Shown piece by piece: positions 1,157-64,000 of a DNA stretch of 64,000 bases; the stretch's first letter is position 1; each line of letters opens with the position of its first letter. The notes below the pieces were generated by a model that saw only the letters and a program-made list of their open reading frames with translations, did no database searches and was not told the DNA's origin. The stretch is from assembly GCA_951406725.2 (NCBI GenBank), contig OX597835.1, forward strand, positions 45,756,001 through 45,820,000, given 5' to 3'. The position numbers and the translations under genes are program-made. Origin of the DNA: Octopus vulgaris. Its lineage: Eukaryota.

Positions 1157-1158
<2 letters not shown>

Positions 1159-1706
1159 GAAAATAACAATGCAATACGAAAGTATTGCTTTCCAGTAAAA
1201 GATAGCCCGTAAGGGTAAAATTATACATATAAAAGTATATAAATGGTACAACGCGGTACCGATATTTACTGGAAAATAGCGATCGTAATAAATACGACGC
1301 TATTGTATAGCTTCACTGCGTATATACTAGCAAAGCCGTGTGTGTGCAACAAACATGAAAAAATTTATCTTACCTCTAGGAGGGACAATGAAAAATGAAA
1401 AACCTAGAAACGGATAATGCAGGACCGGTTTCAGACTCTTCAAATACGTTTGACAACGTAGATTTGATTTGTCCTCATCAGCTGCATATACCTAGACAAA
1501 ATTTCAAATGTTGCCACACCTATGCCAGTACACTCGTCTGAACGCCAAAACGTTAACAGAACGAGAACAGTGAAGAAGTCTCAATGAAAATAATAATGCA
1601 ATACGAAAGTATTGCTTTCCAGTAAAAGATAGACCGTAAGGGTAAAATTATACATATAAAAGTAAATAAATGGTACAACGGGCTATCTTTTACTGGAAAG
1701 CAATAC
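1157..1706 (-). mobile_element. Non-coding PLE-like/retrozyme-like module: partial tandem (427 bp period), short 5' inverted segment, hammerhead
   Basis: 1157-1252 repeats at 1584-1680; 1679-1706 is the reverse complement of 1182-1209; minus-strand 3' end abuts (TA)n; hammerhead lies between the repeats. Confidence 0.75.
1417..1487 (-). ncRNA. Type I hammerhead ribozyme, canonical core
   Basis: Minus strand ATGCAG-CTGATGA-GGAC..(extended hairpin)..GTCT-GAAA-CCGG-TC-CTGCAT: 6 bp stem I, palindromic stem III, GUC cleavage triplet. Confidence 0.85.
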
Positions 1707-2215: not shown

Positions 2216-2226
2216 ACTACGTATAT

Positions 2227-2276
<50 letters not shown>

Positions 2277-2278
<2 letters not shown>

Positions 2279-2434
2279 TCTTTTACTCTTTTACTTGTTA
2301 CAGTCATTTGACTGCGGCCATGCTGGAGCACCGCCTTTTTAGTCGAGCAACTCGACCCCGGGACTTATTCTTTGTAAGCCCAGTACTTATTCTATCGGTC
2401 ACTTTTTGCCGAACCGCTAAGTTACGGGGACATG

Positions 2435-2491
<57 letters not shown>

Positions 2492-2647
2492 TCTTTTACT
2501 CTTTTTACTTGTTTCAGTCATTTGACTGCGGCCATGCTGGAGCACCGCCTTTTTAGTCGAGCAACTCGACCCCGGGAGCTATTCTTTGTAAGCCCAGTAC
2601 TTATTCTATCGGTCACTTTTTGCCGAACCGCTAAGTTACGGGGACAT
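2277..2647 (-). repeat. Two tandem 3' fragments of the CORE-type SINE, separated by (TA)n
   Basis: 2277-2430 and 2489-2645 near-identical, both truncated at GTTACGGGGAC and followed by ATGTATT(TA)n. Confidence 0.9.
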
Positions 2648-2648
2648 G

Positions 2649-2691
<43 letters not shown>

Positions 2692-2693
<2 letters not shown>

Positions 2694-3101
2694 TTTTTAC
2701 TCTTTTACTTGTTTCAGTCATTTGACTGCGGCCATGCTGGAGCACCGCCTTTAGTCGAGCAAATCGACCCCGGGACTTATTCTTTGTAAGCCCAGTACTT
2801 ATTCTATAGGTCTCTTTTGCCGAACCGCTAAGTGACGGGGATGTAAACACACCAGCATCGGTTGTCAAGCAATGCTAGGGGGACAAACACAGACACACAA
2901 ACATATACACACACACTTATATATATATATACATATATACGACAGGCTTCTTTCAGTTTCCGTCTACCAAATCCACTCACAAGGCATTGGTCGGCTCGGG
3001 GCTATAGCAGAAGACACTTGCCCAAGATGCCACGCAGTGGGACTGAACCCGGAACCATGTGGTTGGTTAGCAAGCTACTTACCACACAGCCACTCCTGCG
3101 C
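2692..3101 (-). mobile_element. tRNA-derived CORE-type SINE (octopus OR-like), full length
   Basis: Minus strand GGCGCAGGAGTGGCTGTGTGGTAAG..GGTTCAGTCCC (A/B boxes), CORE-like CTTGGGCAAGTGTCTT, (GTAAAAGA)n tail; matches 39974-40389 and 63724-64000. Confidence 0.9.
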
Positions 3102-3752
3102 CTATATATATACATACATATATAATCTCCAGCATCCACATACAAACCAAACACGCACTAGCCTGTATATACGGATATACACACGCTCTTTGAGCATCTG
3201 TCTGTGTGTTGTGAGTTGATTAGTCACCATATGTAGAACACAATCCAATTAAAGTATATATGGCTTATCCAATAATGATGTGACGATACGACTAACAATA
3301 TTCGTGGTGGTGGGGTGCGGTGGGGGTGTCGTTGGCAGCTGCGGTGGTGGCAGTGGTGGTGGTGGTGGTGGTGGTGGAATGATGATGACCGTGATGATGA
3401 TGACGAAAACGGTGTATATGATATTCAATATCCTTTATGGAAATCATTGTCTGTGCCTTAAGTAGAAATATATGACGTGCTTTCGCATAATGTCCGAGAT
3501 TCACACCCACGAGTGCAAACACAAACGTACACGCACAAGCACAACGCACGCACACATACAAACCGGCACTATTAGAATTACTGCAACTGATACACACACA
3601 ACATTATATAAAGCCATGAAACACGCAATTAAGCACACAGATATAAGCACATATGCATATAGACATACAAACACAAATGATTATAAAACCAATGAGCCAA
3701 TGAAACTGCATATTCATATTTGTATTAGGAAATGTGAATATATATACTTTTA

Positions 3753-3847: not shown

Positions 3848-5180
3848 GGATCTGCCGGTTTGAGAAACGCCAACGTTTAACTCCAACCCCAAAAAGTTCT
3901 ACCAAGAGCTTGGCAAAAATAAAATAGACAACAATGCAACACTACCAGCTCCAGGGGAAGAATTTTGGAAAGAAATATGGTCGGTGAAGGCACACCTCAG
4001 AAAAGAGCTATCAAAACAACGAACTTAGCACCTGAACAACTTTGGACCCCTATGACAACTGAAGAGGTCATCTAGGCACTGCAAGAACTAAGAAACTGGA
4101 AGGCACTCGGGCACGATAACATCCCCAACTTCTGGTTAAAATATCTGGCAGCAACACACAAAAAGCTGGATGAAAAATTTAATGACATGCCAGCAGAACC
4201 GGAGACAATGCATGAATGGCTCGCGAAAGGGAAAACTATCCTAATTCCCAAATCAACTGAAACGGCAAACCAACAAAATTAAAGACCAATAACTTATCTC
4301 CCTACAATTTACAAAGCCTTTGCTGCAATAATATCGCAGTGATTGAGCAAGCATCTGGAAGAAAACAACCTGTTTCTAGAAGAATAGAAGAGATGCTGCA
4401 AGGGCTCATACGGCTGTAAAGATCAACTAATGATCAATAAAGCCATAACTGAAGACAGTCGTAGAAAGAAGAATGACCTACGTATGGCCTGGATAGACTC
4501 CAAACAAAAGAGGGACTGATAAAAACCAAAACCATCCCCATTAGAAGAAGAATATTCCAGGGAGACACGTTCTCTCCACTCCTTTTCTACTTGGCACTGA
4601 CACCTCTATCTGACATGCTAAATAGAACTGGATGCGGGTACAATTGTTACGGCAAAACACTCAGCCTCCTCTTATATATGGATGACCTAAAACTATACGC
4701 TATATATGATAAACAGCTGGAAAAATTACCACAGACAGTACATGGATTTACTAAAGAAATAAATATGAAACTTCGCTTAGAAAAATGTGCCTAAGCAAAC
4801 TTGAAAAGCGGAAAACTAGTTAAGAGTAGCAACATCTCACTAGAGAAAGCAAATGAAATCAGAGAATTAAACCAACGCCAGACATACAAATATTTAGGAA
4901 TCAATGAACTCGATACGATACAACACACATTTGAAAGAAAAAATGAAAAAAATACTATAGACGAGTTAGATTAATACTGAAAAAAGAGCTCAGTGCGAAA
5001 ATCAAGATAAGGTATCAACACTGTAGCCGTCCCATTTATAAGTTACAGCTACAATATCATTAACTGTATACTAAAAGAACTAACCAAAATAGACACGAAA
5101 ACATGAGGATTTAGGATGCACTAACCAAATTCTGATATAGAATGTTCATATTTATAACGTATAGAATGTGGTAGAGGCCT
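3848..5180 (+). mobile_element. R4/Dong-like LINE, decayed RT region
   Basis: Translates to NWKALGHDNIPNFWLK, GKTILIPK, GCKDQLMINKAI, IFQGDTFSPLLF, LLYMDDLKLY; stops and frameshifts; starts at (TAA)n. Confidence 0.9.
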
Positions 5181-5905
5181 TAAATGACTCGCTTTGAAGT
5201 TTTGCATTCGGTACAATTTGTTTATTTTAGTAGTTTTGACTGCAAAAGTCCCTCCTAGCGTGCGGTACCTATGAATAATAGTACCCTCTATATAATATAG
5301 ATAAGTATTTTCAAAGTTGAAAAAATTTACAGATTTTTTCTCTTACGAGGTTTTTCACGCTAACTACTGATAATTTCTTATAAAGATTTTATCCTTATTT
5401 TTGAATTTATATTTTTCACCGGAATAGTTCAATACTGAATTTTTGTTCCGAGTAGGCAAGTTGTTACCGAAATGCATTGCGAAAAAGCCCGACATGTTCA
5501 TAGATATGTAAAAATATACATTCGTACATGCTGCGGTGAATTCTACGGTTGGTTGTTGGGTATGTGATGTTGTGTTTTTTCTTATATGTCTTGAGTTCGT
5601 TGCACGGAAGAGCATAGAATGCATATTCTGCATTGATTGCGAAATCACAGGTGATATGTAACTAAATTCTGTTTTTAAATGACTCGCTTTGAAGTTTTGC
5701 ATTCGGTACAATTTATTTATTTTAGTAGTTTTGACTGCAAAAGTCCCTCCTAGCGTGCGGTACCTATGAATAATAGTACCCTCTATATAATATAAATAAG
5801 TATTTTCAAAGTTGGAAAAAATTTACAGATTTTTTTCTCTTACGAGGTTTTTCACGCTGACTACTGATAATTTCTTATAAATATTTTATCCTTATTTTTA
5901 AATAT
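5181..5905 (+). mobile_element. Non-coding partial-tandem module (495 bp period) with hammerhead
   Basis: 5181-5405 nearly identical to 5676-5902; 3' end runs into (TA)n; truncates the preceding R4/Dong fragment. Confidence 0.75.
5599..5662 (+). ncRNA. Type I hammerhead-like fold, U4G core variant
   Basis: GTTGCA-CGGAAGA-GCA..TGC-GAAA-TCAC ag GTGA-TA-TGTAAC; all three stems form. Confidence 0.65.
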
Positions 5906-5925
5906 GATATATATACATATTTAAA

Positions 5926-6081
<156 letters not shown>

Positions 6082-14050: not shown

Positions 14051-14097
<47 letters not shown>

Positions 14098-14110
14098 GTT
14101 ATTATTATTA

Positions 14111-14300
14111 AGGCGGTGCACTGGCAGAATCGTTAGCACGTTGGACGAAATATTTAGTGGTGCTTTGGCCATCGCTCCATTCTGAGTTCAAATTACTCCG
14201 AGGTCGACTTTGCCTTTCATCCTGTCAGGATCGATAAAATACGTACCAGTTGAATATTGGGGTCGATGTAATTGAATCATCCCCTCCTCCCAAATCGGTG
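14111..14300 (+). mobile_element. tRNA-derived Meta/MESC-type SINE
   Basis: GGCGGTG..CTGGCAGAATCGTTAGCA head; GTCGACTTTGCCTTTCATCC..TCGATAAAAT..GTACCAG central domain. Confidence 0.8.
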
Positions 14301-14363
14301 CCGTTATTGTTGTTGTTGTTAGTGTTGTTGTTGTTGTTCTTCTTCTTCTTCTTCTTCTTCTTC

Positions 14364-14463
<100 letters not shown>

Positions 14464-22172: not shown

Positions 22173-22262
22173 ACATCAAGCCATCAATAATTGGTGTACA
22201 CATACATAGACACGCATACACATACATACATATATATATTACACAACACTACCCCACTGAAT

Positions 22263-23539
22263 ATGGCCAATAATTTTCAAAAACGCCGCTGGGTTGAAAA
22301 TGAAATTACTGCAATGATTAACGCTTGGTTCATCCATCACAACGAAGCTAATGTTTATAGCAAAATAACTGAGGATTTAACGAAAAAATCCTTTCACAGA
22401 TCTGTAAAACAGATAGAAAATAAATTAAAAGAAATTGTTAGGATATTCCCTATTTTTCACGCGCACATGGCTACACTAAAAGCCATTCTTGCCAACGAAT
22501 TCAGTACAACAAATGACCAAATCCCAACAGGTCAGTGGTCACTTCAACAGCAACAATCAACTGACCTACTTCCATTGACAACAGCACCTGATGAACCAAG
22601 TCAAGTCTCACCTTCGCTACAGCAACAAAAACAACAACAACAACAACAACACTCTAATACTACCACTAGTCAAGTTCCAATGCTGCTACAACTCCCCACT
22701 ACTGCCACAATAGGAAAATCACTACTACATCCGCGTAAAACTATCTGCCACTACTACTCTCAAGGCAGCTGCAGATTTGACCACATACTGGCAAGCCAGA
22801 ACCCACCATTACAAAATCAACAAGCTGCTTCTAACACCACCACCACCACCACCACTACAACTACTGCCAAAATAGAAAAACCACTACTACAACCAAATAA
22901 AACCCCTGCCGTTACTATTCTAAAGGCACTTGTAGATTTGGCCCCAGCGGCACAAACAAAAATGGACGCTGTGCTTTTCCCCACCCGACCTTATGTCGTA
23001 GACTTGCTATGGGCACCTGTCCATACGGTATAACAGGAAAAAATTGCCCCCACCTCCACCCCAAATACTGTCCTAAATACAGAATCTATGGTTCTGACCC
23101 TAAATACGGATGCATAAGAGGCAATGGATGCACCTTATTCCATCCTAAACTGTGCCAAACTTCTGTCTCACAAAGGATGTGCCTGAACCCAAAATGCAAC
23201 AACCACCATCTGAAGGGCACAAAACGATCACAGAATAGATATGAACAGGAACAGAGGAAATCTAGGACAACAACAAGAACAAAATACAACCACGTTTCCC
23301 CTCCTACAATCAAACTACGTAGACAGAACCAGGAAAAAACACCAAATAACGCCAACTTGAAATATGTATCCTCTGACCAAGTGGCAAACCAAACAAGTAA
23401 CTCTTTTTTACTGACATACCTGGAAAATATGAAGGCCGACCTAAGCCAGGAGATCCAGCGAGCCATCACCAACCATCTATGCAAATCACAAGGACCACTC
23501 ACCCATTACCAACTTCCCTTACCTCGACATTCCTGTTAA
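22263..23539 (+). pseudogene. LINE ORF1: N-terminal Myb/SANT-like domain, Q/T-rich linker, CCCH zinc-finger array; frameshift near 22900
   Basis: RRWVENEITAMINAW..YSKITEDL..RSVKQIENKLKEI; a frame change at AAATAAAACCCC restores CRYYSKGTCRFG..CAFPH, which joins ORF 23009-23539 with three more CCCH units. Confidence 0.75.
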
Positions 23540-23576
23540 ATGTACGTGGCATCAACCCATCAATTATTGCCCAAAA

Positions 23577-26477
23577 ATGGAAGATCCCATATATAGAGAG
23601 TTGGCTTGCCGAAATGGCACATTGCTTCCTTTCTTTATCCTTACCGAGACTCACCTGAACAACACCCATATGGACGCAGAGGTGAAAATAAAAGATTTCA
23701 CCATTGTTCGTGCGGATCGCACAGACCGAAATAAGGGAGGGACAGCCATCTTTATCCATGACTCCTTTTCACTTGATGTCAAGGACGCATTTTCCAATGG
23801 CTACTGTGAATCGGTATCAGTATACAACAAAGCCAAGGACATAACCATTGTTGGTCTTTACAGGCCTCCCCAGGCACCTCTAAAGTACTTTGAAGAGTGC
23901 CTTAGCAAAGTCAAGTCCTTCCTTCGGAAGTACCACTCCGGAAACATAATAGTGATGGGTGATTTTAACCTCCCTCATGTGAACTGGCCCACAAATACTC
24001 CGAAGTTAGGCAAGTGCTCTACATCAGATAGGGCAGCAGCAGAACTGCTCTTTAATCTGATGGATGAGTATTTCCTGACTCAGCTAGTGCTTGAACCAAC
24101 GAGACAGAATAAAACGATCTTGGATCTGGTACTGACCAATCACTCTAGCTACGTTCACAGCATTTCAGTCGAAAAAACTCTCCTCTCAGACCACGACATG
24201 GTACTCTGCAATCTTAATTCCCGACGTATAAAAACCAAACCAGCCAATCCCACTCCATGGCACCCATTTGACAACATAAATTTCCACAAAGCGGACTGGG
24301 GAACAATCAGAAAGGATCTGTCTTCCATCGACTGGTCTTTTACTCTTAATTCCCCTCATATTGAGACCGCGTGGCAGCACTTTGAAACCATTGTCACCGA
24401 CACATGCTCTAAACACGCTCCCAAGAAATCTACTAACACAAACAGGAACCGGCTCCCTAAAAAGAAAAAAACACTCATCAGGCGCATCAAAAGACTCAAC
24501 AAAAAAATCAACCTATTAAAATATTCCCACACGCAACATCCACATTCAACAACAATGAAAAGACTAGAGCTGGAAAAACTTCATCTGCAGACTAACATGA
24601 AAACCTCCATTGAAAATCAAAGAGCTGTGGAGGAACAATGGGTAATCAAAAACATCAAACAGAACCCAAAAGTGTTCTATTCTTATGCAAATAAGCATAT
24701 AACCACTGTCTCACCTATTGGGCCATTGATTGATGAAAACGGCATTATCCAACACGATGCTAAAGAAATGGCAGAAATACTGCAGAAACAATATTGCTCT
24801 GTCTTCAGTGTTCCCACTGATATTGATGTGAGGGAAACGAACGAAGCTGACTCCCAACACAAAATCGCAGACATAACCTTCACTGCCACCGACATCGTAG
24901 CAGCAATAAATGAGGTCAAACATTACTCTGCTGTAGGCCCTGATAGATTTCCCGCCAGTCTCCTGAAGGAATGTAGATATCAACTTGCAGTCCCTCTGAC
25001 CAACCTCTGGAGAAACTCGTTAGACGCAGGTTATATACCGAAAAAGTTTCTATCCCAGTCGGTCATCCCGGTTTTCAAACAGGGAAACAGATCCCTCGCA
25101 GTCAACTATCGCCCAATCTCACTCACCTCCCACATCATTAAGGTGTTTGAAAGAGTGTTAAGATCAAGGATAGCTGACTTCCTGGAGACCCACAAACTCC
25201 TAAATTCAAATCAGCATGGCTTTCGCTGTGGCAGGGACTGTCTAACACAGCTCTTACACCACATTGAAGATGTACTCAAAGCCTTGGGAACAGGTTCGAA
25301 CTCTGACGTCATATACCTTGACTTCAGTAAAGCGTTCGACAGGGTAGACCATAACATCCTACTCTCAAAATTGGCAAATGTTGGAATCCGTGGAAAAGTT
25401 CTACACTGGATTCAGTATTTCCTAGCGAATAGAACACAACATGTTGTAGTTGATGGAGTCCACTCAAACGGTGTTCCCCAGGGAACTGTTTTGGGTGTTT
25501 TGGGTCCGCTACTCTTCATAATTTATGTAAACGACCTTTCCAGTGTCGTACATCACTGCAAAGTGAAAATATTCGCTGATGACACTAAGCTCCAGCAAAT
25601 CGTCAATGAAGAAGCAGACCGAACTCAACTCCAGTCTGACCTATATGCTGTGAGTCAATGGGCAGACAGAAACAAAATGCAACTGAATGAGGGAAAATTT
25701 GAGCTGATGCATTTTGGAAGAAATTCCTCACTAAAACAACCATACTCTCTTCCTTCAGGGGAACCGCTCACAGCCTCTAACAATATCAGAGACCTGGGTG
25801 TAATTGTTGATGACGATCTCAGTTGGAGTGCACACATCAACAAGAAGGTCGATACAGCTCGTAGGATGAGTTCCTGGATCTTAAGGACTTTCCGGTCCAG
25901 AGAACAAGGTGTCATCATACCACTTTTTTCATCCTTTGTACGGCCACACCTTGAATACTGCTGCCCACTGTGGTCTCCTCACACAAGACAAAACATCTCC
26001 AGAATTGAGTCACCCCAGAGGGCTCTCACTAAACAAATTGAAGGCATGGCTGCTCTCGATTATTGGGATCGCCTTAAAGCCTTGAAACTTTACTCCCTCC
26101 AGCGTCGCCGTGAGCGGTACATCATTTGTACGATGTGGAAAATATACCGCCAACTTTGCCCAAACGACCTAAACATTAGCTTCAAGGTTCATCCGAGACT
26201 TGGACCACGGGCTATACGTCCCCTGCCAAATTCAAGATCACAACATACGTGTACACTGCAACATAATTTCTTTTCCTCAACAGGCCCTGCCCTATTTAAC
26301 ATTGTCCCGAGGGAGATCAAAGAGGAAAAGGATCCCATCAACTTCAAACAGAGTCTGGATAGATTCTTTCAAAGAATACCAGATAAGCCACCCATAATTG
26401 GATACAACTCACCCAACAAGAACTCACTACTTGAACAAAACTGGATACAACTCACCCAACAAGAACTCACTACTTGA
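23577..26477 (+). CDS. LINE ORF2: APE endonuclease and reverse transcriptase (probably defective)
   Basis: 966 aa ORF with LTETHL, GDFN, LDLVLTN, SDH, NYRPISLTS, YLDFSKAFDRV, GVPQG, FADD, RPHLEY; the N-terminal LLNVRG motif lies upstream in another frame. Confidence 0.92.
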   Translation: MEDPIYRELACRNGTLLPFFILTETHLNNTHMDAEVKIKDFTIVRADRTDRNKGGTAIFIHDSFSLDVKDAFSNGYCESVSVYNKAKDITIVGLYRPPQAPLKYFEECLSKVKSFLRKYHSGNIIVMGDFNLPHVNWPTNTPKLGKCSTSDRAAAELLFNLMDEYFLTQLVLEPTRQNKTILDLVLTNHSSYVHSISVEKTLLSDHDMVLCNLNSRRIKTKPANPTPWHPFDNINFHKADWGTIRKDLSSIDWSFTLNSPHIETAWQHFETIVTDTCSKHAPKKSTNTNRNRLPKKKKTLIRRIKRLNKKINLLKYSHTQHPHSTTMKRLELEKLHLQTNMKTSIENQRAVEEQWVIKNIKQNPKVFYSYANKHITTVSPIGPLIDENGIIQHDAKEMAEILQKQYCSVFSVPTDIDVRETNEADSQHKIADITFTATDIVAAINEVKHYSAVGPDRFPASLLKECRYQLAVPLTNLWRNSLDAGYIPKKFLSQSVIPVFKQGNRSLAVNYRPISLTSHIIKVFERVLRSRIADFLETHKLLNSNQHGFRCGRDCLTQLLHHIEDVLKALGTGSNSDVIYLDFSKAFDRVDHNILLSKLANVGIRGKVLHWIQYFLANRTQHVVVDGVHSNGVPQGTVLGVLGPLLFIIYVNDLSSVVHHCKVKIFADDTKLQQIVNEEADRTQLQSDLYAVSQWADRNKMQLNEGKFELMHFGRNSSLKQPYSLPSGEPLTASNNIRDLGVIVDDDLSWSAHINKKVDTARRMSSWILRTFRSREQGVIIPLFSSFVRPHLEYCCPLWSPHTRQNISRIESPQRALTKQIEGMAALDYWDRLKALKLYSLQRRRERYIICTMWKIYRQLCPNDLNISFKVHPRLGPRAIRPLPNSRSQHTCTLQHNFFSSTGPALFNIVPREIKEEKDPINFKQSLDRFFQRIPDKPPIIGYNSPNKNSLLEQNWIQLTQQELTT

Positions 26478-37927: not shown

Positions 37928-38247
37928 TATATATATATATAATGAAAGTCGTTTCCAGTAACAATCGAAGAATACTTAATTCGTTGGTCACTCATGTGTC
38001 TGTGAGATTGCGGTGATTGATGCAAACAAATTAGTTTCGCTTCACAGATATTTGGAGTTTATTGCTCTTAACTCTGAATCGATGCAAAGAATGAATATAG
38101 ACGACAGAGTGCGTTGAAATGTCGTGACTCGATATAAAATCTTTTCAGGGTATGACAATATACATTTTAACGATATCATTCCAGAAAGCATTTCATATAT
38201 ATTTTGTGGAACCAAGAGTCTTAAGAATATTGTTTTTTTTTTATGTA

Positions 38248-39225
38248 AGGCTGTGAGCTGGCAGAAACGTTTACACCCCGGGGGAAATGCTTAGCGCTAT
38301 TTCGTCTGTCTTTACGTTCTGAGTTCAAATTCCGCCGAGGTCGACTTTGCCTTTCATCCTTTCGGGGTCGATAAATTAAGTACCAATTACGCACTGGGGT
38401 CGATGTAATCGACCTAATCCGTTTGTCTGTCCTTGTTTGTCTTGTCTGTGTTTAGCCCCTTGTAGGTAGTAAAGAAATAGGTATTTCGTCTGCCGTTACG
38501 TTCTGAGATCAAATTTTGCCGATGTTGAATTTGCCTTTCGGTGTCGATAAATTATGTACCAATTGTGTACTGGGGTCGATCTAATCGACTGGCCCCTTCC
38601 CAAAACTTTCGGGCTTTGTGCCTAGAGTAGAAAAAGAATTTTTATAAAAAGGCAGTGATCTGGCAGGAATGTTAGCACGCCGAGCGAAATGCTTAGCCGT
38701 ATTTCGTCTGCCATTACCTTCTGAGTTCAAATTCCGCTGAGGTCGACTTTGCCTTTCATCCTTTCGGGGTCGATAAATTAAGTACCAGTTACGCACTGGA
38801 GTCGATATAATCGACTTAATCCGTTTGTCTGTCCTTGTTTGTCCTCTCCTTGTTTAGCCCCTTGTGGGTAGTAAAGAAATAGGTATTTCGTCTGCCGCTA
38901 CCTTCTGAGCTCAATTTCTGCCGATGTCGACCTTGCCTTTCATCCTTTCGGGGTCGATTAAATAAGTACCAGTTACGCACTTGGGTCGATATAATAGACT
39001 TAATCCGTTTGTCTGTCCTTGTTTGTCCTCTCCTTGTTTAGCCCCTTGTGGGTAGTAAAGAAATAGGTATTTCGTCTGCCGCTACCTAATGAGCTCAATT
39101 TCTGCCGATGTCGAATTTGCCTTTCGGTGTCGATAACTTATGTACCATTTGCGTACTGGGGTCGATCTAATTGACTGGCCCGCTCCACAAAAATTTCTGG
39201 CCTTGTGCCTAGAGTAGAAAAGAAT
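38248..39225 (+). mobile_element. Tandem/composite array of Meta/MESC-type SINE units
   Basis: Heads at 38248 and 38651; TATTTCGTCTG..GTCGA body unit repeated five times with two alternative tails. Confidence 0.9.
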
Positions 39226-39973
39226 TTCATTTTTATACAAATCAAGTCGGTTGTTGAAACTCCTTAAAACTTTAGCAAGATATCCTTAAGTCACATCTTC
39301 TTATGTGCAGTAGAAATTTGTAAGCAACATCAACGCAAAATGAAGTAAAACAGTTAAGGTACCAAAGAGAAAAATGCAATTCTAAACATTACATTATTGT
39401 AATTCCTTACACCCAATAAAGAAGAAACTCAAAAATATTGCCAATAGCTCCAATAAGATAATGAGATTTCTATCATTTATGCCCTTCATGAAACGAAAGT
39501 AGTCTATATGAAAAGGCATTTATACAAGATGTGCAGTTGGTTAGAACCCAGCACCTCAATATTACAGAAGTGATGGTTTAACAGCACAGCCACAACAGTA
39601 CACATATAAGGGGAATTTTTGTGCACGCTGGAGTCTGAGGGTACATTTTTAGAAATTTTCAGTTTCGGAAAGAATTATTGTTGAGGAAATATTTAATGCA
39701 GATTTTATATATTCATATACAGAAATGTTCACAACAGCAGCAGCCATATTTTTCAAACACGGAGTAAATGCTTCTCAATTCCTTCTGAACTCTTTCTATC
39801 GCTTTTATTTCAGCTCTAACGTCGTTGGTTTAATGTCAGTTACCTTGTATTTACAATGACGTGGACTACAGATGAGGGTCTATGCAAATGAGTTAGAACA
39901 AATTTTGGTTTCATATTATTGGGCAATAAAGGCAAAAAATAAATAGCAGTAATAATAATAATAATAATAATGG

Positions 39974-40536
<563 letters not shown>

Positions 40537-41168: not shown

Positions 41169-41372
41169 TGGTTTCAAATTGTGCCAGAAGTGCAGCAATT
41201 TTGGGGGAGGGCATGAGTTGATTTCAGTGACCACAGTATTCAACTTGTACTTATTTTATCGACCTCGAAGGATGAAAGGTAAAGTCGACCGCGGCAGAAT
41301 TTAAACTCAGAATGTAGCGACAGGCGAAATACCGCTAAATATTGCATCCGGCGCGCAAACCCGTCTGCCAAC
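41168..41372 (-). mobile_element. Meta/MESC-type SINE
   Basis: Reverse complement of the 43944 family (CGACCTCGAAGGATGAAAGGTAAAGTCGACC..). Confidence 0.8.
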
Positions 41373-43943
41373 TCAAAATGAAGATCAATTGAACAGTCAG
41401 CGAATTTGAATGGCACAAGAAAACCATCACCAAATATAAGAATATTTGTTTTAACACACGATTCCACACCAAAAACATGCAAAACAATTACTTAAACGCG
41501 CGCGCACACACACACACACAAACACACACATATACACGCGTGTGTGTGTTTATGTGTATGCATTTATACGGTTTCGTTTGTGTATATGGTCTATTCATGT
41601 AATTTTACTGGATTTAATTTCTTGCAGCGGTCAATGGCTTGTAATTCTATATTCATTTTATTAGATACTGAATGTTTTACAATTCTCTTAAGGTTCTTGA
41701 CAAGATACATACGACCATTAACAATAATTAAACTAACATGTGATAAAATGTTCTTTTCTTAACAATTAAATGGAGACTGGGTTATAAAATGGAGACAGTT
41801 GTCTGGCATTCATAGCTTGTCAACCCCTCCTATCTCCTTATCACAATGTGTCGAAGAGGAGGTAGCCAGTTGGGCAGCAGTTGTGGCTAATGATTTGATC
41901 AAATGGAGTATTAAACATACCACGAATTATACATGGCAGAATGAGCGAGACTCTGGCTAAATAAATCTTTGATAATTCATCCTCATTCTTTGTCTCCACT
42001 CCCCCCCTCTCTGTATACACACACACACAAGGTCTTCTCATAGTTACCGATCAACCCAGAAATACGCTTGCTGAAAATACTACACAGTGACCACGAACTC
42101 TCGATCACGTGGTTGAAAAGCAATTTTCTTAATCATACAAACTTCTCAAAGTCCATTATATCAATAATTTCTTTGCTATGAAAAGCAAAATAATAGATTT
42201 GTCGAATGTTGCGATTATTTCCAACAAGTGCGTAAAGTGATGCCTGCTAAATTTTTTTCATCACTGAGCTAGGAATTCAAGTGTTGAAATAAATATAACA
42301 CTTCTCGGAGAAAGCGAATAAAATTGTCTGAAGTAGTTTGTTTGTGACAGATGATTAAGTTCAGTCTGTAGCAGTAAATTTATCGAAAATTTACGTCACC
42401 CTCGTTACAATTCTGTTGTGTGTAGAGACCAGATTTAATATTGTATGGCACTTTTTATATCTGTAAAGCTGAAATTAGAAGACAACGATGATCTGAACAC
42501 CGGAACATTTGTTCTATTTCTGGAGGCAAGTTGTTGCCATATAGATATATATCTCACCGTTGTTTATCTTTTTTGTCTTCAATCAAAGATACATGCGATG
42601 ACGTCGTTTCCAGCCATGACTATCCTGTCTTTTGTATATTTAGGACCACATTATGCAACATTGCTTAAAACGGCGGGTTGAAGCTGAGATACTTTGGAGA
42701 CTATTCCTAAACGATGAAGCCATCTCCTGCATTAATTTGCAATCAGCCACTGTAAGTATATGAATAAATAACTTTCAAAGAAGATTAGAGTTTGCTTTCT
42801 AAATCTCTCAATAGGGATACCCTGCCTGTATCTATCTCTTTTCCACTGGAAATTTGTTCAGTTCCACAATATCCATTCCAGTGGCTTCTTGTAACGAATA
42901 ACAGCTTTTGATACAAAAACTGTTAAATCAACTTTATCCTTAAAGCAAACAAACAAACGACCAAACTAAGAAGATCAATTCTGCCCAAGAATAGTTTTCT
43001 TTGGACAAAATATTTATTACGGAATTTGGATGATTTTCTAAAACTGATCTTCCATTCATGATACCTTCGTAGATGTGCATATTCTGTGAAAAGTTCTTGA
43101 TTATTTTTCGTCAAACTCTTATTTTGAACAATGAAAAATTCATTCATTCATGCATGACGTTGGTGTCATTTCTTTAATAATATTATAAAGAAAACGTATC
43201 CTTCTGTTTTTACTGTTTTGTTTTTCAGTTTACAAATCATGACTGTACCAACCCTTAACATGAGTATAATTATCTTTTGATCACCAAATTTATTTCTGTA
43301 TAAAATCGTTGAATAGTTCAGAGAAAGAATGTTAATCATATGCTGATACTTGCGTCATCTCACAAGAAAAAAAAAAGAGACAAAAAAATCAATAACACAT
43401 AACATATATGAACATTTTCTAAAATAAAGTTTCGTCTCTTTAATGAAGAATTCACAAATGCCAGGAGCGATTCCGGATATCATCCATCTCATTACGAATA
43501 AAGCGAATACTGAATGGATAATTCTTTTAAGACGTATCGAATAGTTTTCGAAGAGATAAAGAAATAAAGTATTGCTATGTGACATCAGATGGAATCTGTG
43601 AAGAGAGATTTGGCAGTGATGTTTGTACATGTTGGACATCATTGACGCTAAATAAACCCCCAAACTACGCTTTCAATGAATATTTGATTTTGCACTCTGT
43701 TAATTATTCCACTGTTCGTTAATGGCCGTTCTTGAGTGAGAAATCATAATTCAATATTTCATAAATACTTGATACTTTTTCGGTACCAATCGTATCAAAT
43801 ACCATGCTAAGGTTGCGATAGTTTCGATCTACTTGAGGTCTGAAGCGCCGTACGGGTAAAGTTGTTCAAAGAAACTCGAAAACAAATATACAAGGAAAAG
43901 AATAACAGTTTAAAACTGCAAAAGTGCCACAAGTTATAAATAA

Positions 43944-44175
43944 GGCGGTGAGCTGGCAGACACGTTAGCGCGCCAGGCGGAATGCTTAGCGGTATTTCGT
44001 CTGTCGTTACGTTCTGAGTTCAAATTCCGCCGAGGTAGACTTTGCCTTTCATCCTTTCGGGGTCGATTAAATAAAAGTAACAGTTTCGCACTGGGGTCGA
44101 TGTAATCGACTTAATCTCTTTGTCTGTCCTTGTTTGTCCTCTCTATGTTTAGCCCCTTGTGGGCAATAAAGAAAT
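43944..44175 (+). mobile_element. Meta/MESC-type SINE, full length
   Basis: GGCGGTGAGCTGGCAGA head, GAGTTCAAATTCC B box, central domain and tail as in the 38.2 kb array. Confidence 0.9.
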
Positions 44176-44303
44176 ATATAAATAATGTCTTATAGGCAGT
44201 GGTTAAGGACCATGCTTAAAATTACTTCGTATAACAACGTAGTTTGGGGTTTATTCACACTGCATGGTGCCGAAGTTAACTATCATACACACGCACACGC
44301 ATA

Positions 44304-51449: not shown

Positions 51450-51592
51450 CGTCCTTTCAAATTCTGCCGAGGTCGACCTTGCCTTTCATCCTTTTGAGGT
51501 CGACTAAATAAGTACCAGTTACACACTGGTGTCCATGTAATGGACTAGCCCTTCGCCCAAAATTTAAAACCCTGTGCCTTTAGTAGAAATGA
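51450..51592 (+). mobile_element. Meta/MESC-type SINE 3' half
   Basis: TTCAAATTCTGCCGAGGTCGACCTTGCCTTTCATCC..AAGTACCAG. Confidence 0.8.
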
Positions 51593-57154: not shown

Positions 57155-57470
57155 ATGCATGATGGCCGTCCACTGGTGACCGAGGAATACCATTGCCGAC
57201 CTTCAGGAACATTATGCGCTCTAGGACTAACTTATATTTTGCATTTGCGGCTCCGTTGGTGGCTAACGAACCCTGCTCTTGACAAGCATACACGTCTGCA
57301 AACATTGCAGACCAAGCTTTCCCCATTCACTATACGAGCCGTGCACTTTCGCGCAGCTCGCTTAAGTTCTTCATGCTGGATACGTGCTCACTCAAACGTG
57401 TCGATCCCCTCCTTAACCTGCTTCCTCCATCTGTAGCGATGACAGGCATTGTTCTCCCAGTCATTGTCTC
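57155..57470 (-). mobile_element. RTE LINE 3' end
   Basis: Minus strand encodes C.VCRRVCLSRAGFVSHQRS, the RTE C-terminal C2H2-like motif, then a short UTR ending at (TA)n. Confidence 0.75.
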
Positions 57471-57866
57471 GTAAATGATGTCCTATCTGAATCTCAGTGT
57501 GGCTTCCGATCTGGTAGAGGGACAATGGATATGATTTTCACAGCAAGACAGATGCAGGAGAAGTGCTATGAGCAGAATATGGATCTTGTCCAGGTATTCA
57601 TTGATTTAACTAAGGCTTTTGATACTGCAAATAGGACCTTTCTATGGAAAATACTTGGCAAACTTGGATGTCCGGATCACTTTGTATCTATAATTAAATC
57701 ATTTCATGATGGGATGGAGGCTTGGGTAAATGTTGGTGGTGCCATGGCGGGACCCATTCCTGTAGAGAATGGTGTCAAGCAGGGTGACATCCTTGCCCCA
57801 ACTCCTTTTCTTTGTACTTTGCTGATGCTCTTACTAAGGTTAGCTCTCTGGGAATACATGTCAGAT
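57470..57866 (+). mobile_element. RTE LINE RT fragment (inverted relative to the 3' end)
   Basis: ESQCGFRSGRGTMDMIFTARQMQEKCYEQ..FIDLTKAFD..GVKQGDILAP. Confidence 0.92.
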
Positions 57867-58189
57867 ATATATGCATATATATATACATACATATACATAC
57901 ATATATGTACATGCATATACATACTAATACACATATACACATACATACACAGATGCTAAAATACACAAACATCTACACATACGCACATATATATATCAAT
58001 CTGGGTACATTCATATAACTGCTTATAATTACATATATTTCTATATCACGCATCTCAACATGTATATATGAATTTCTACATTTCAGTGAGAGAAAGGAGT
58101 GATTATATAGGCTTCTTATTCCCATTCTTTTCCAAATTAACTCCTTGTATTGACCTCTACTATTTCTCTGTATGTAGCCATATCACATC

Positions 58190-63193: not shown

Positions 63194-63723
63194 GAGAAAG
63201 CCCACCTACAACATCCTACAATCTTTTTGAATATGAAATAACGAATATATCGAAGTCCCTGAAGCAAATCGTAAAAAGGTATTTATTGAAATGCATATTG
63301 TGATATTATATACGTATTTCAATATATGGCTTGATTAATTTTTCGTATATCTTTTCTCGTTGGCTAGTCTGATATATTACCGCATATATCACCACTCTTG
63401 AATCTGTTGGTGAGGTTTCTAGTTCTACTGAGGCCATTCCTTAAATGTCTTGGACAGAAAACTGAAAGTCTCGGTTGTTCTTTGCATTTGTTTTACAGTT
63501 TCATTGACTACGGGTCCTCCACTGGCTTATAAAACCAACAAGTGATTTGCTCATCTGTTGCTGAGGCATCGTTTCTTTTCCTGCGTTGCAATAATCAACT
63601 GTTCGTTTTCTACGTCACGTTGTGCGTCTAGATCGGCTGAAAATGTTCATACCTATAATAGATCGAATAATAGTTTAGCTGCTTGAAATTATTTACGAAT
63701 GTCGGTTGAAGCGTTCACATATA

Positions 63724-64000
63724 GGCGCAGGAGTGGTTGTGTGGTAAGTAGCTTGCTAACCAGCAACATGGTTCTGGGTTCAGTCCCACTGCGTGGCATC
63801 TTGGGCAAGTGTCTTCTGCTATAGCCTCGGGCCGACCAATGCCTTTGTGAGTGGACTTGGTAGACGGAAACTGAAAGAAGCCTGTCGTATATATGTATAT
63901 ATATATGTATGTGTGTGTGTGTGTGTTTGTGTGTCTGTGTCTGTCCCCCCCTAGCATTGCTTGACAACCGATGCAGGTGTGTTTACGTCCCCGTCACTTA
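63724..64000 (+). mobile_element. CORE-type SINE, cut by the window end
   Basis: Same family as 39974-40389. Confidence 0.92.

Follow-up and report, generated by a model that had tools for sequence, protein, structure and literature searches.

A 1.47-unit copy of a repeated 495-bp element in Octopus vulgaris, likely a non-autonomous Penelope-like retrozyme with a decayed hammerhead core

Analysis of a 64-kb window of the Octopus vulgaris genome, by which we mean the whole 64,000-nucleotide stretch studied, leads us to conclude with high confidence that positions 5180-5905 hold 1.47 units of a repeated element, 495 bp long and non-coding, whose family carries the hammerhead core CUGAAGA. The element likely belongs to the non-autonomous Penelope-like retrozymes. 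In the window copy core position 4 is a G, a change that likely reflects decay and would impair cleavage.

A direct repeat of ~225 bp at 495 bp spacing had been proposed in an initial sequence-only reading and this repeat is real, with 5180-5406 (227 bp) and 5675-5903 (229 bp) aligning at an offset of 495 over 229 columns with 96.9% identity, and differing by five substitutions and two one-base indels. Three parts can be distinguished on the plus strand: the 5′ copy of the repeat (5180..5406), which begins 18 nt past the phase of the predicted cut, a non-coding single-copy part (5407..5674) and the 3′ copy (5675..5905), whose end is an AT-rich site where other family copies end too. One hammerhead motif, held in the single-copy part, thus lies between two partial repeats. 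The GC content of the unit is 33%, its 152-aa minus-strand ORF has no Pfam match, and blastn found no further copy of the unit within the 64-kb window. Beyond the 3′ copy the sequence passes into a TA-rich junction and a (TA)n microsatellite (5906..6076, no strand assigned) that is likely the insertion target of the element. No target-site duplication is visible at 5180-5905, the left flank being an RT element and the right flank (TA)n.

The motif itself, at 5599..5662 on the plus strand, has the shape of a type I hammerhead, with three helices around a core, an open-ended helix I and a predicted cut at 5656/5657 after AUA. Stem I (5599-5604/5657-5662) comprises 6 bp including one G.U; the core has C3 at 5605, a G in position 4 at 5606 and G5 A6 A7 G8 A9 at 5607-5611; stem II (5612-5614/5638-5640) contains the G10.1-C11.1 pair and is followed by GAAA (5641-5644) and by a near-palindromic helix III (5644-5655), with U16.1 of the A15.1-U16.1 pair at 5655 and A17 at 5656. 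The three-way junction described from sequence alone, with its CGGAAGA core, GTTGCA/TGTAAC stem I and GAAA, is therefore confirmed, while two of its hairpins require slight revision. For stem II the GCA/TGC helix stands, but the AGAAT/ATTCT cap (-4.1) gives way to a better pairing of 5618-5623 with 5629-5634 (-12.1, whole fold). Stem III drawn as ATCAC/GTGAT would leave a loop of 2 nt, the monomer forming 4 bp with a CAGG loop. The helix III segment 5644-5655 is more stable as a self-dimer (-11.2 kcal/mol, vs 0.0 kcal/mol for the monomer), and in pairing with itself it resembles the metazoan type I hammerheads that have been described as acting as dimers (PMC4209133). With G12 A13 A14, A15.1-U16.1, H17 and G10.1-C11.1 all present, the departure from the consensus C3 U4 G5 A6 N G8 A9 lies in the G at 5606, and we class this copy as a decayed motif, without ribozyme status.

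When the 64 kb were scanned on both strands under strict type I rules, 5599-5662 was the sole match. Of 1000 dinucleotide-shuffled versions of 5181-5675, none reached a score of 9 as compared with 12.5 observed, the scan thresholds having been chosen after the motif had been seen. Computed folding gives a weaker picture. The hammerhead fold of 5599-5663 is the MFE structure, yet it is no more stable than those of shuffled sequences (z = -0.54), that of 5599-5662 is equal in energy to an alternative, and the probabilities of key hammerhead pairs, 0.2-0.4 for the isolated motif, drop to ~0 in contexts of 170-260 nt. The Rfam hammerhead models had no match on 5450-5800 at E<=10, and an Rfam search of the whole window at E<=1 had no hammerhead among the best 150 of 191 matches, which were mostly microRNA models over simple repeats.

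Upstream, and outside the 495-bp element, is a decayed, 5′-truncated non-LTR RT element (3848..5182, plus strand) that begins right after (TAA)n, contains many stops and frameshifts, and has a Pfam RVT_1 match on 4477-4791 (E=2.7e-10). From the (TAA)n junction, together with motifs that we take to be R4/Dong-like, it is likely an R4/Dong-like element. Molluscs are among the animals in which (TAA)n is the target of Dong elements (PMC7998251). It overlaps the 5′ repeat copy by 3 nt (TTA, 5180-5182), and contigs of other copies of this element leave the window sequence after 5182, so that the retrozyme replaces its 3′ part. The missing part is not in the window, where a search for it gave four matches at 2-3 mismatches vs 5.3 expected by chance.

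In order to view the element as a family we used contigs of four public runs carrying three organism labels (X1, X3, X6 and X5, the last a presumed RNA run), aligned to 5130-5690 at 80% likeness, with X1 covered to about 80%. The numbers of aligned contigs were 1667 (X1), 1311 (X3), 976 (X6) and 161 (X5), most of those in the three large runs being 90-99% alike, and variant copies are numerous in all four runs; part of the unit was also contained in 20 of the 24 runs listed, under four organism labels. Depths quoted below are summed contig depths, which are no measure of copy number, and rare variants drop out of contigs. Collections of viral contigs and of metagenome contigs gave no match to the element.

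Among the loose contig ends listed, those behind 5412 consist of (AT)n in 10 contigs of X3 and four of X5, as do those behind 5303 in five contigs of X5, from which it follows that other copies end at the same or at a second AT-rich site beside a microsatellite. Six contigs in each of X3 and X6 have loose ends before 5180 (median 11-12 letters, agreement 0.83 and 0.77), consisting of the letters of 5660-5674 with microsatellite-like letters ahead of them. Here the longest one or two contigs give a weak hint that some family copies start a few bases past the cut. Of the 15 joints listed, 10 are strand switches inside the unit, each in a single contig and some of them maybe artefacts at 80% likeness; such switches are as expected from the inverted 5′-truncated copies described for Penelope-like insertions. 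A diverged subfamily was also noted, in contigs over 5624-5690 and 5195-5220, that matches the element over the ribozyme's 3′ half and through the repeat that follows. It raises the depth at 5624-5661 in X3, X6 and X5 and dominates it in X5; its loop II is different, with a loose end before 5636 in four contigs of X6 (agreement 0.77). This subfamily may represent a sister retrozyme, or else an autonomous partner's terminal repeat.

By comparison with known systems the family most likely belongs with the non-LTR retrozymes, or non-autonomous Penelope-like elements, the window copy being a decayed member of the monomer class. Retrozymes have been defined, and their linear and circular RNAs described in mussel, coral and axolotl, by Cervera and de la Pena (2020, PMC7229834), and the 495-bp element has in common with those metazoan non-LTR retrozymes a short, non-coding unit of low GC content (<50%) with one type I hammerhead, a short near-palindromic helix III and many variant copies. 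At 495 bp it is longer than the 150-450 bp of PMC7229834 but within the 51-972 bp of a more recent account (bioRxiv 10.64898/2026.07.22.740005), in which retrozymes are derivatives of Penelope-like elements (PLEs), occur as monomer copies and are homologous to pLTRs. The window locus differs from the retrozymes of PMC7229834 in having 1.47 units with a single mutated ribozyme, not the two ribozymes that define an active retrozyme, which places it in the monomer class. PLEs with pLTR hammerheads (Neptune, Poseidon/Penelope; PMC4209133, PMC11167929) and the (TA)n-targeting Naiads (10.1101/2021.04.23.441226) provide a second set of likenesses: the same partial-tandem, pLTR-like organisation, a type I hammerhead, insertion at AT-rich or microsatellite sequence, internal 3′ ends that recur and no visible target duplication, although Naiads are reported to be without hammerheads. 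Unlike PLEs, the 495-bp element has no RT or GIY-YIG ORF and its ribozyme lies outside the duplicated part. No GIY-YIG domain was found among 41 selected ORFs of the window, nor was an autonomous partner found there. The family is apparently undescribed so far, no description being found among the open-access papers listed for octopus hammerhead ribozymes and for cephalopod retrozymes.

These likenesses also bear on a rival reading, in which the unit is the pLTR region of an autonomous Penelope-like element, present as a truncated partial tandem and not as an independently mobile retrozyme RNA. PLEs typically form partial tandems and target microsatellites (10.1101/2021.04.23.441226), retrozymes are homologous to pLTRs (bioRxiv 10.64898/2026.07.22.740005), and the diverged subfamily has the downstream repeat as well as the ribozyme's 3′ half in common with the unit. 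We nevertheless regard this reading as unlikely. The ORF-less unit closes on itself at 495 bp, both in the window and in the contigs that join 5674 to 5180 (two in X1, one in X3), joints which establish continuity of the unit and not arrays; in addition just 0-1% of contigs, most of them short, continue into unlike sequence in the three large runs. No listed contig spans the aligned stretch and no array with two ribozymes was seen among the contigs, which are mostly short.

The window includes a sister module at 1157..1706 on the minus strand (1.29 copies of a 427-bp unit, with (TA)n directly at its 3′ end), which had been described from sequence alone as having the same architecture but unrelated sequence. 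Both points hold, with blastn detecting no similarity between the modules. A relaxed scan of the window returned two matches, 5599-5662 and a type I hammerhead at 1487-1417 on the minus strand with an intact CUGAUGA core and a minimal CCGG helix III. The second of these also matches the Rfam model Hammerhead_HH9 (26.2 bits, E=1.4e-4), short of that model's gathering score of 52. This module appears the better candidate for an active ribozyme. A long hairpin is present in its duplicated part (about 1182-1275 and 1609-1706). We considered whether 1.5-unit inserts can form only around an inactive internal ribozyme and rejected this, as U4 accounts for almost the whole depth of the family and the core of the sister module is intact.

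The sister module is also of importance in considering whether the partial duplication arose at the DNA level, through local duplication, unequal crossing-over or satellite-like amplification, with the ribozyme playing no part in spread. In vitro, insertion by the PLE PAc proceeds normally with ribozyme mutants, so that cleavage is not required (PMC11167929), eight of nine Xenopus dimers are without cleavage (bioRxiv 10.64898/2026.07.22.740005), and the hammerhead fold in the present case is weak in silico. A process of this kind is nonetheless improbable in view of the dispersed single insertions, the 3′ ends that recur at AT-rich sites and are then followed by (AT)n, a core that is almost invariant across three organism labels, and the identical geometry of an unrelated module.

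The near-invariance of the core is most clearly seen at position 4. The sequence-only reading had left two options for the G at 5606, a natural core variant or a single inactivating mutation in a retrozyme-like element, and had named a CUGA consensus as the outcome that would exclude the first. This is what the family shows: T at 5606 accounts for 64122 of 64221 in summed depth in X1 (99.85%, 28 contigs), 45040 of 45163 in X3 (99.73%, 37 contigs), 4426 of 4426 in X6 (100%, 18 contigs) and 100.1 of 100.1 in X5 (100%, four contigs), leaving a non-T depth of 99 in X1 and 123 in X3 (0.15-0.27%) and of 0 in X6 and X5. There is no other variant among those listed for 5605-5611, and the majority core of the family, the diverged subfamily apart, is the canonical CUGAAGA. 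The variant is thus refuted and the single mutation supported, with G4, on these contigs, appearing private to the window copy or to a tiny lineage.

No special explanation is needed for such a change. Among the variants listed, the single-copy part of the window copy has at least 7-11 sites unlike nearly all family contigs, at least 7 of its 268 sites differing from >=97% of the depth in X1 and at least 11 of 268 from >=85%, a divergence of 2.6-4.1% at which the expected chance of one or more changes among 11 core bases is 25-37%; G4 is therefore explicable by drift alone. The change may be younger than the insertion, or may already have been present in an uncommon source copy. Both repeat copies carry the same letters, rare among family contigs, at 5305 and 5398, so that some of the 'private' differences are older than the insertion and the template was already unusual. 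G4 would likely impair cleavage in the window copy; the literature searched yielded no data on U4G kinetics and the expected effect is based on the general conservation of the core. Two further variants fall in the stems. In X1 a T>C change at 5659 (12268 of 18468 in depth) turns the G.U of stem I into G-C, the C being in the minority in X3, X6 and X5 because the diverged subfamily adds depth there, and a G>A change at 5612 (G10.1; 35% of depth in X3, 60% in X6) weakens stem II unless 5640 changes too.

That the G at 5606 is a sequencing or assembly error, or that the resemblance to a hammerhead is fortuitous, is very unlikely. The four runs are not known to include the source individual, the window letters at 5492, 5496 and 5557 are absent from X1, and Rfam gives no hammerhead match to the motif, but chance is excluded by the shuffles and by the family letter that completes a canonical core, the level of private differences matches the 3% between the repeat copies, as ageing predicts, and an error at 5606 alone would leave the verdict unchanged. 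Natural variants of the core do occur, namely U3-A8, U4C, A6C and U15.1-A16.1, several of which are reported as active in assays (PMC3088659, PMC7151607), and the window copy is like these in that a single position deviates from CUGANGA while the rest of the topology is complete, but unlike them in that the deviation is limited to this copy of a canonical family; a term search of PMC3088659 gave no occurrence of U4G. We consider it scarcely credible that G4 is a functional core variant of a small active subfamily, for which one could cite the non-T residual in X1 and X3, the unusual template and the precedent of U4C in a viroid (PMC3088659), given that the residual, whose letters are not given, is about what one to three ordinary contigs contribute to depth (30-90) and is zero in two runs, that drift is expected to yield a core change in 25-37% of copies so diverged, and that the core has no compensating change. 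Had U4G been fixed in the family, it would have added a new natural variant of the hammerhead; the family data remove that prospect.

The window as a whole is AT-rich and rich in microsatellites, and several other repeats were noted. The 1010-aa open frame of a LINE-like element at 22191-26477 (plus strand) contains APE endonuclease and RT, while the frame ahead of it gives a weak Myb/SANT-like match below the cut-off, and a short RT fragment at 57417-57959 (plus strand; RVT_1, E=1.8e-13) leads into a TA-rich microsatellite. A SINE-like repeat occurs at 2221-3107, 39974-40382 and 63719-64000, with one end in tandem triplicate at ~214-bp spacing and (TA)n spacers; the repeat, its 2289-3103 part included, presumably resembles octopus SINEs. 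Partial tandems with offsets of 184, 218, 401 and 586 are found in a dispersed family at 38238-39227, 43934-44176, 41197-41375, 51456-51564 and 14091-14383, and neither the strict nor the relaxed scan detected a hammerhead in this family.

A plausible route to the observed structure can be proposed for a non-autonomous Penelope-like retrozyme. Intact copies would be transcribed and the transcripts would cleave themselves after AUA, a step in which pairing of two molecules through the palindromic helix III probably assists. The product would be RNA of unit length, linear or circular. In trans, a Penelope-type RT/GIY-YIG protein would nick (TA)n DNA, and reverse transcription would start internally at an AT-rich site, in a phase of about 5405-5412; internal initiation in vitro and AT-rich targets are reported for PAc (PMC11167929). 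Copying would then proceed back through the ribozyme junction, by way of a circle, a template jump or an uncut multimer, and stop near the next cut site, with one ribozyme between two partial repeats as the outcome. More-than-unit copying that leaves a partial tandem with one ribozyme has been proposed previously in connection with dimeric type I hammerheads (PMC4209133). The window copy would subsequently have drifted neutrally.

The geometry of the family, with some copies apparently starting ~3-18 nt from the cut and with ends at fixed AT-rich sites beside (TA)n, suggests a more specific, and tentative, possibility, that it is the genomic footprint of ribozyme-cut RNA used as template. The start-near-cut pattern is not general, as the 5′ copy in the sister module 1157-1706 starts 143-150 nt past the cut phase. 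A role of the hammerhead in defining the template was proposed in 2014 and was unsupported in vitro in 2024. If the footprint were to hold across hundreds of copies it would constitute in vivo evidence that cleavage defines the template of Penelope-type more-than-unit reverse transcription, and the dispersed copies of this family, with their mappable ends, offer material for testing whether cleavage sets the ends of Penelope-type templates.
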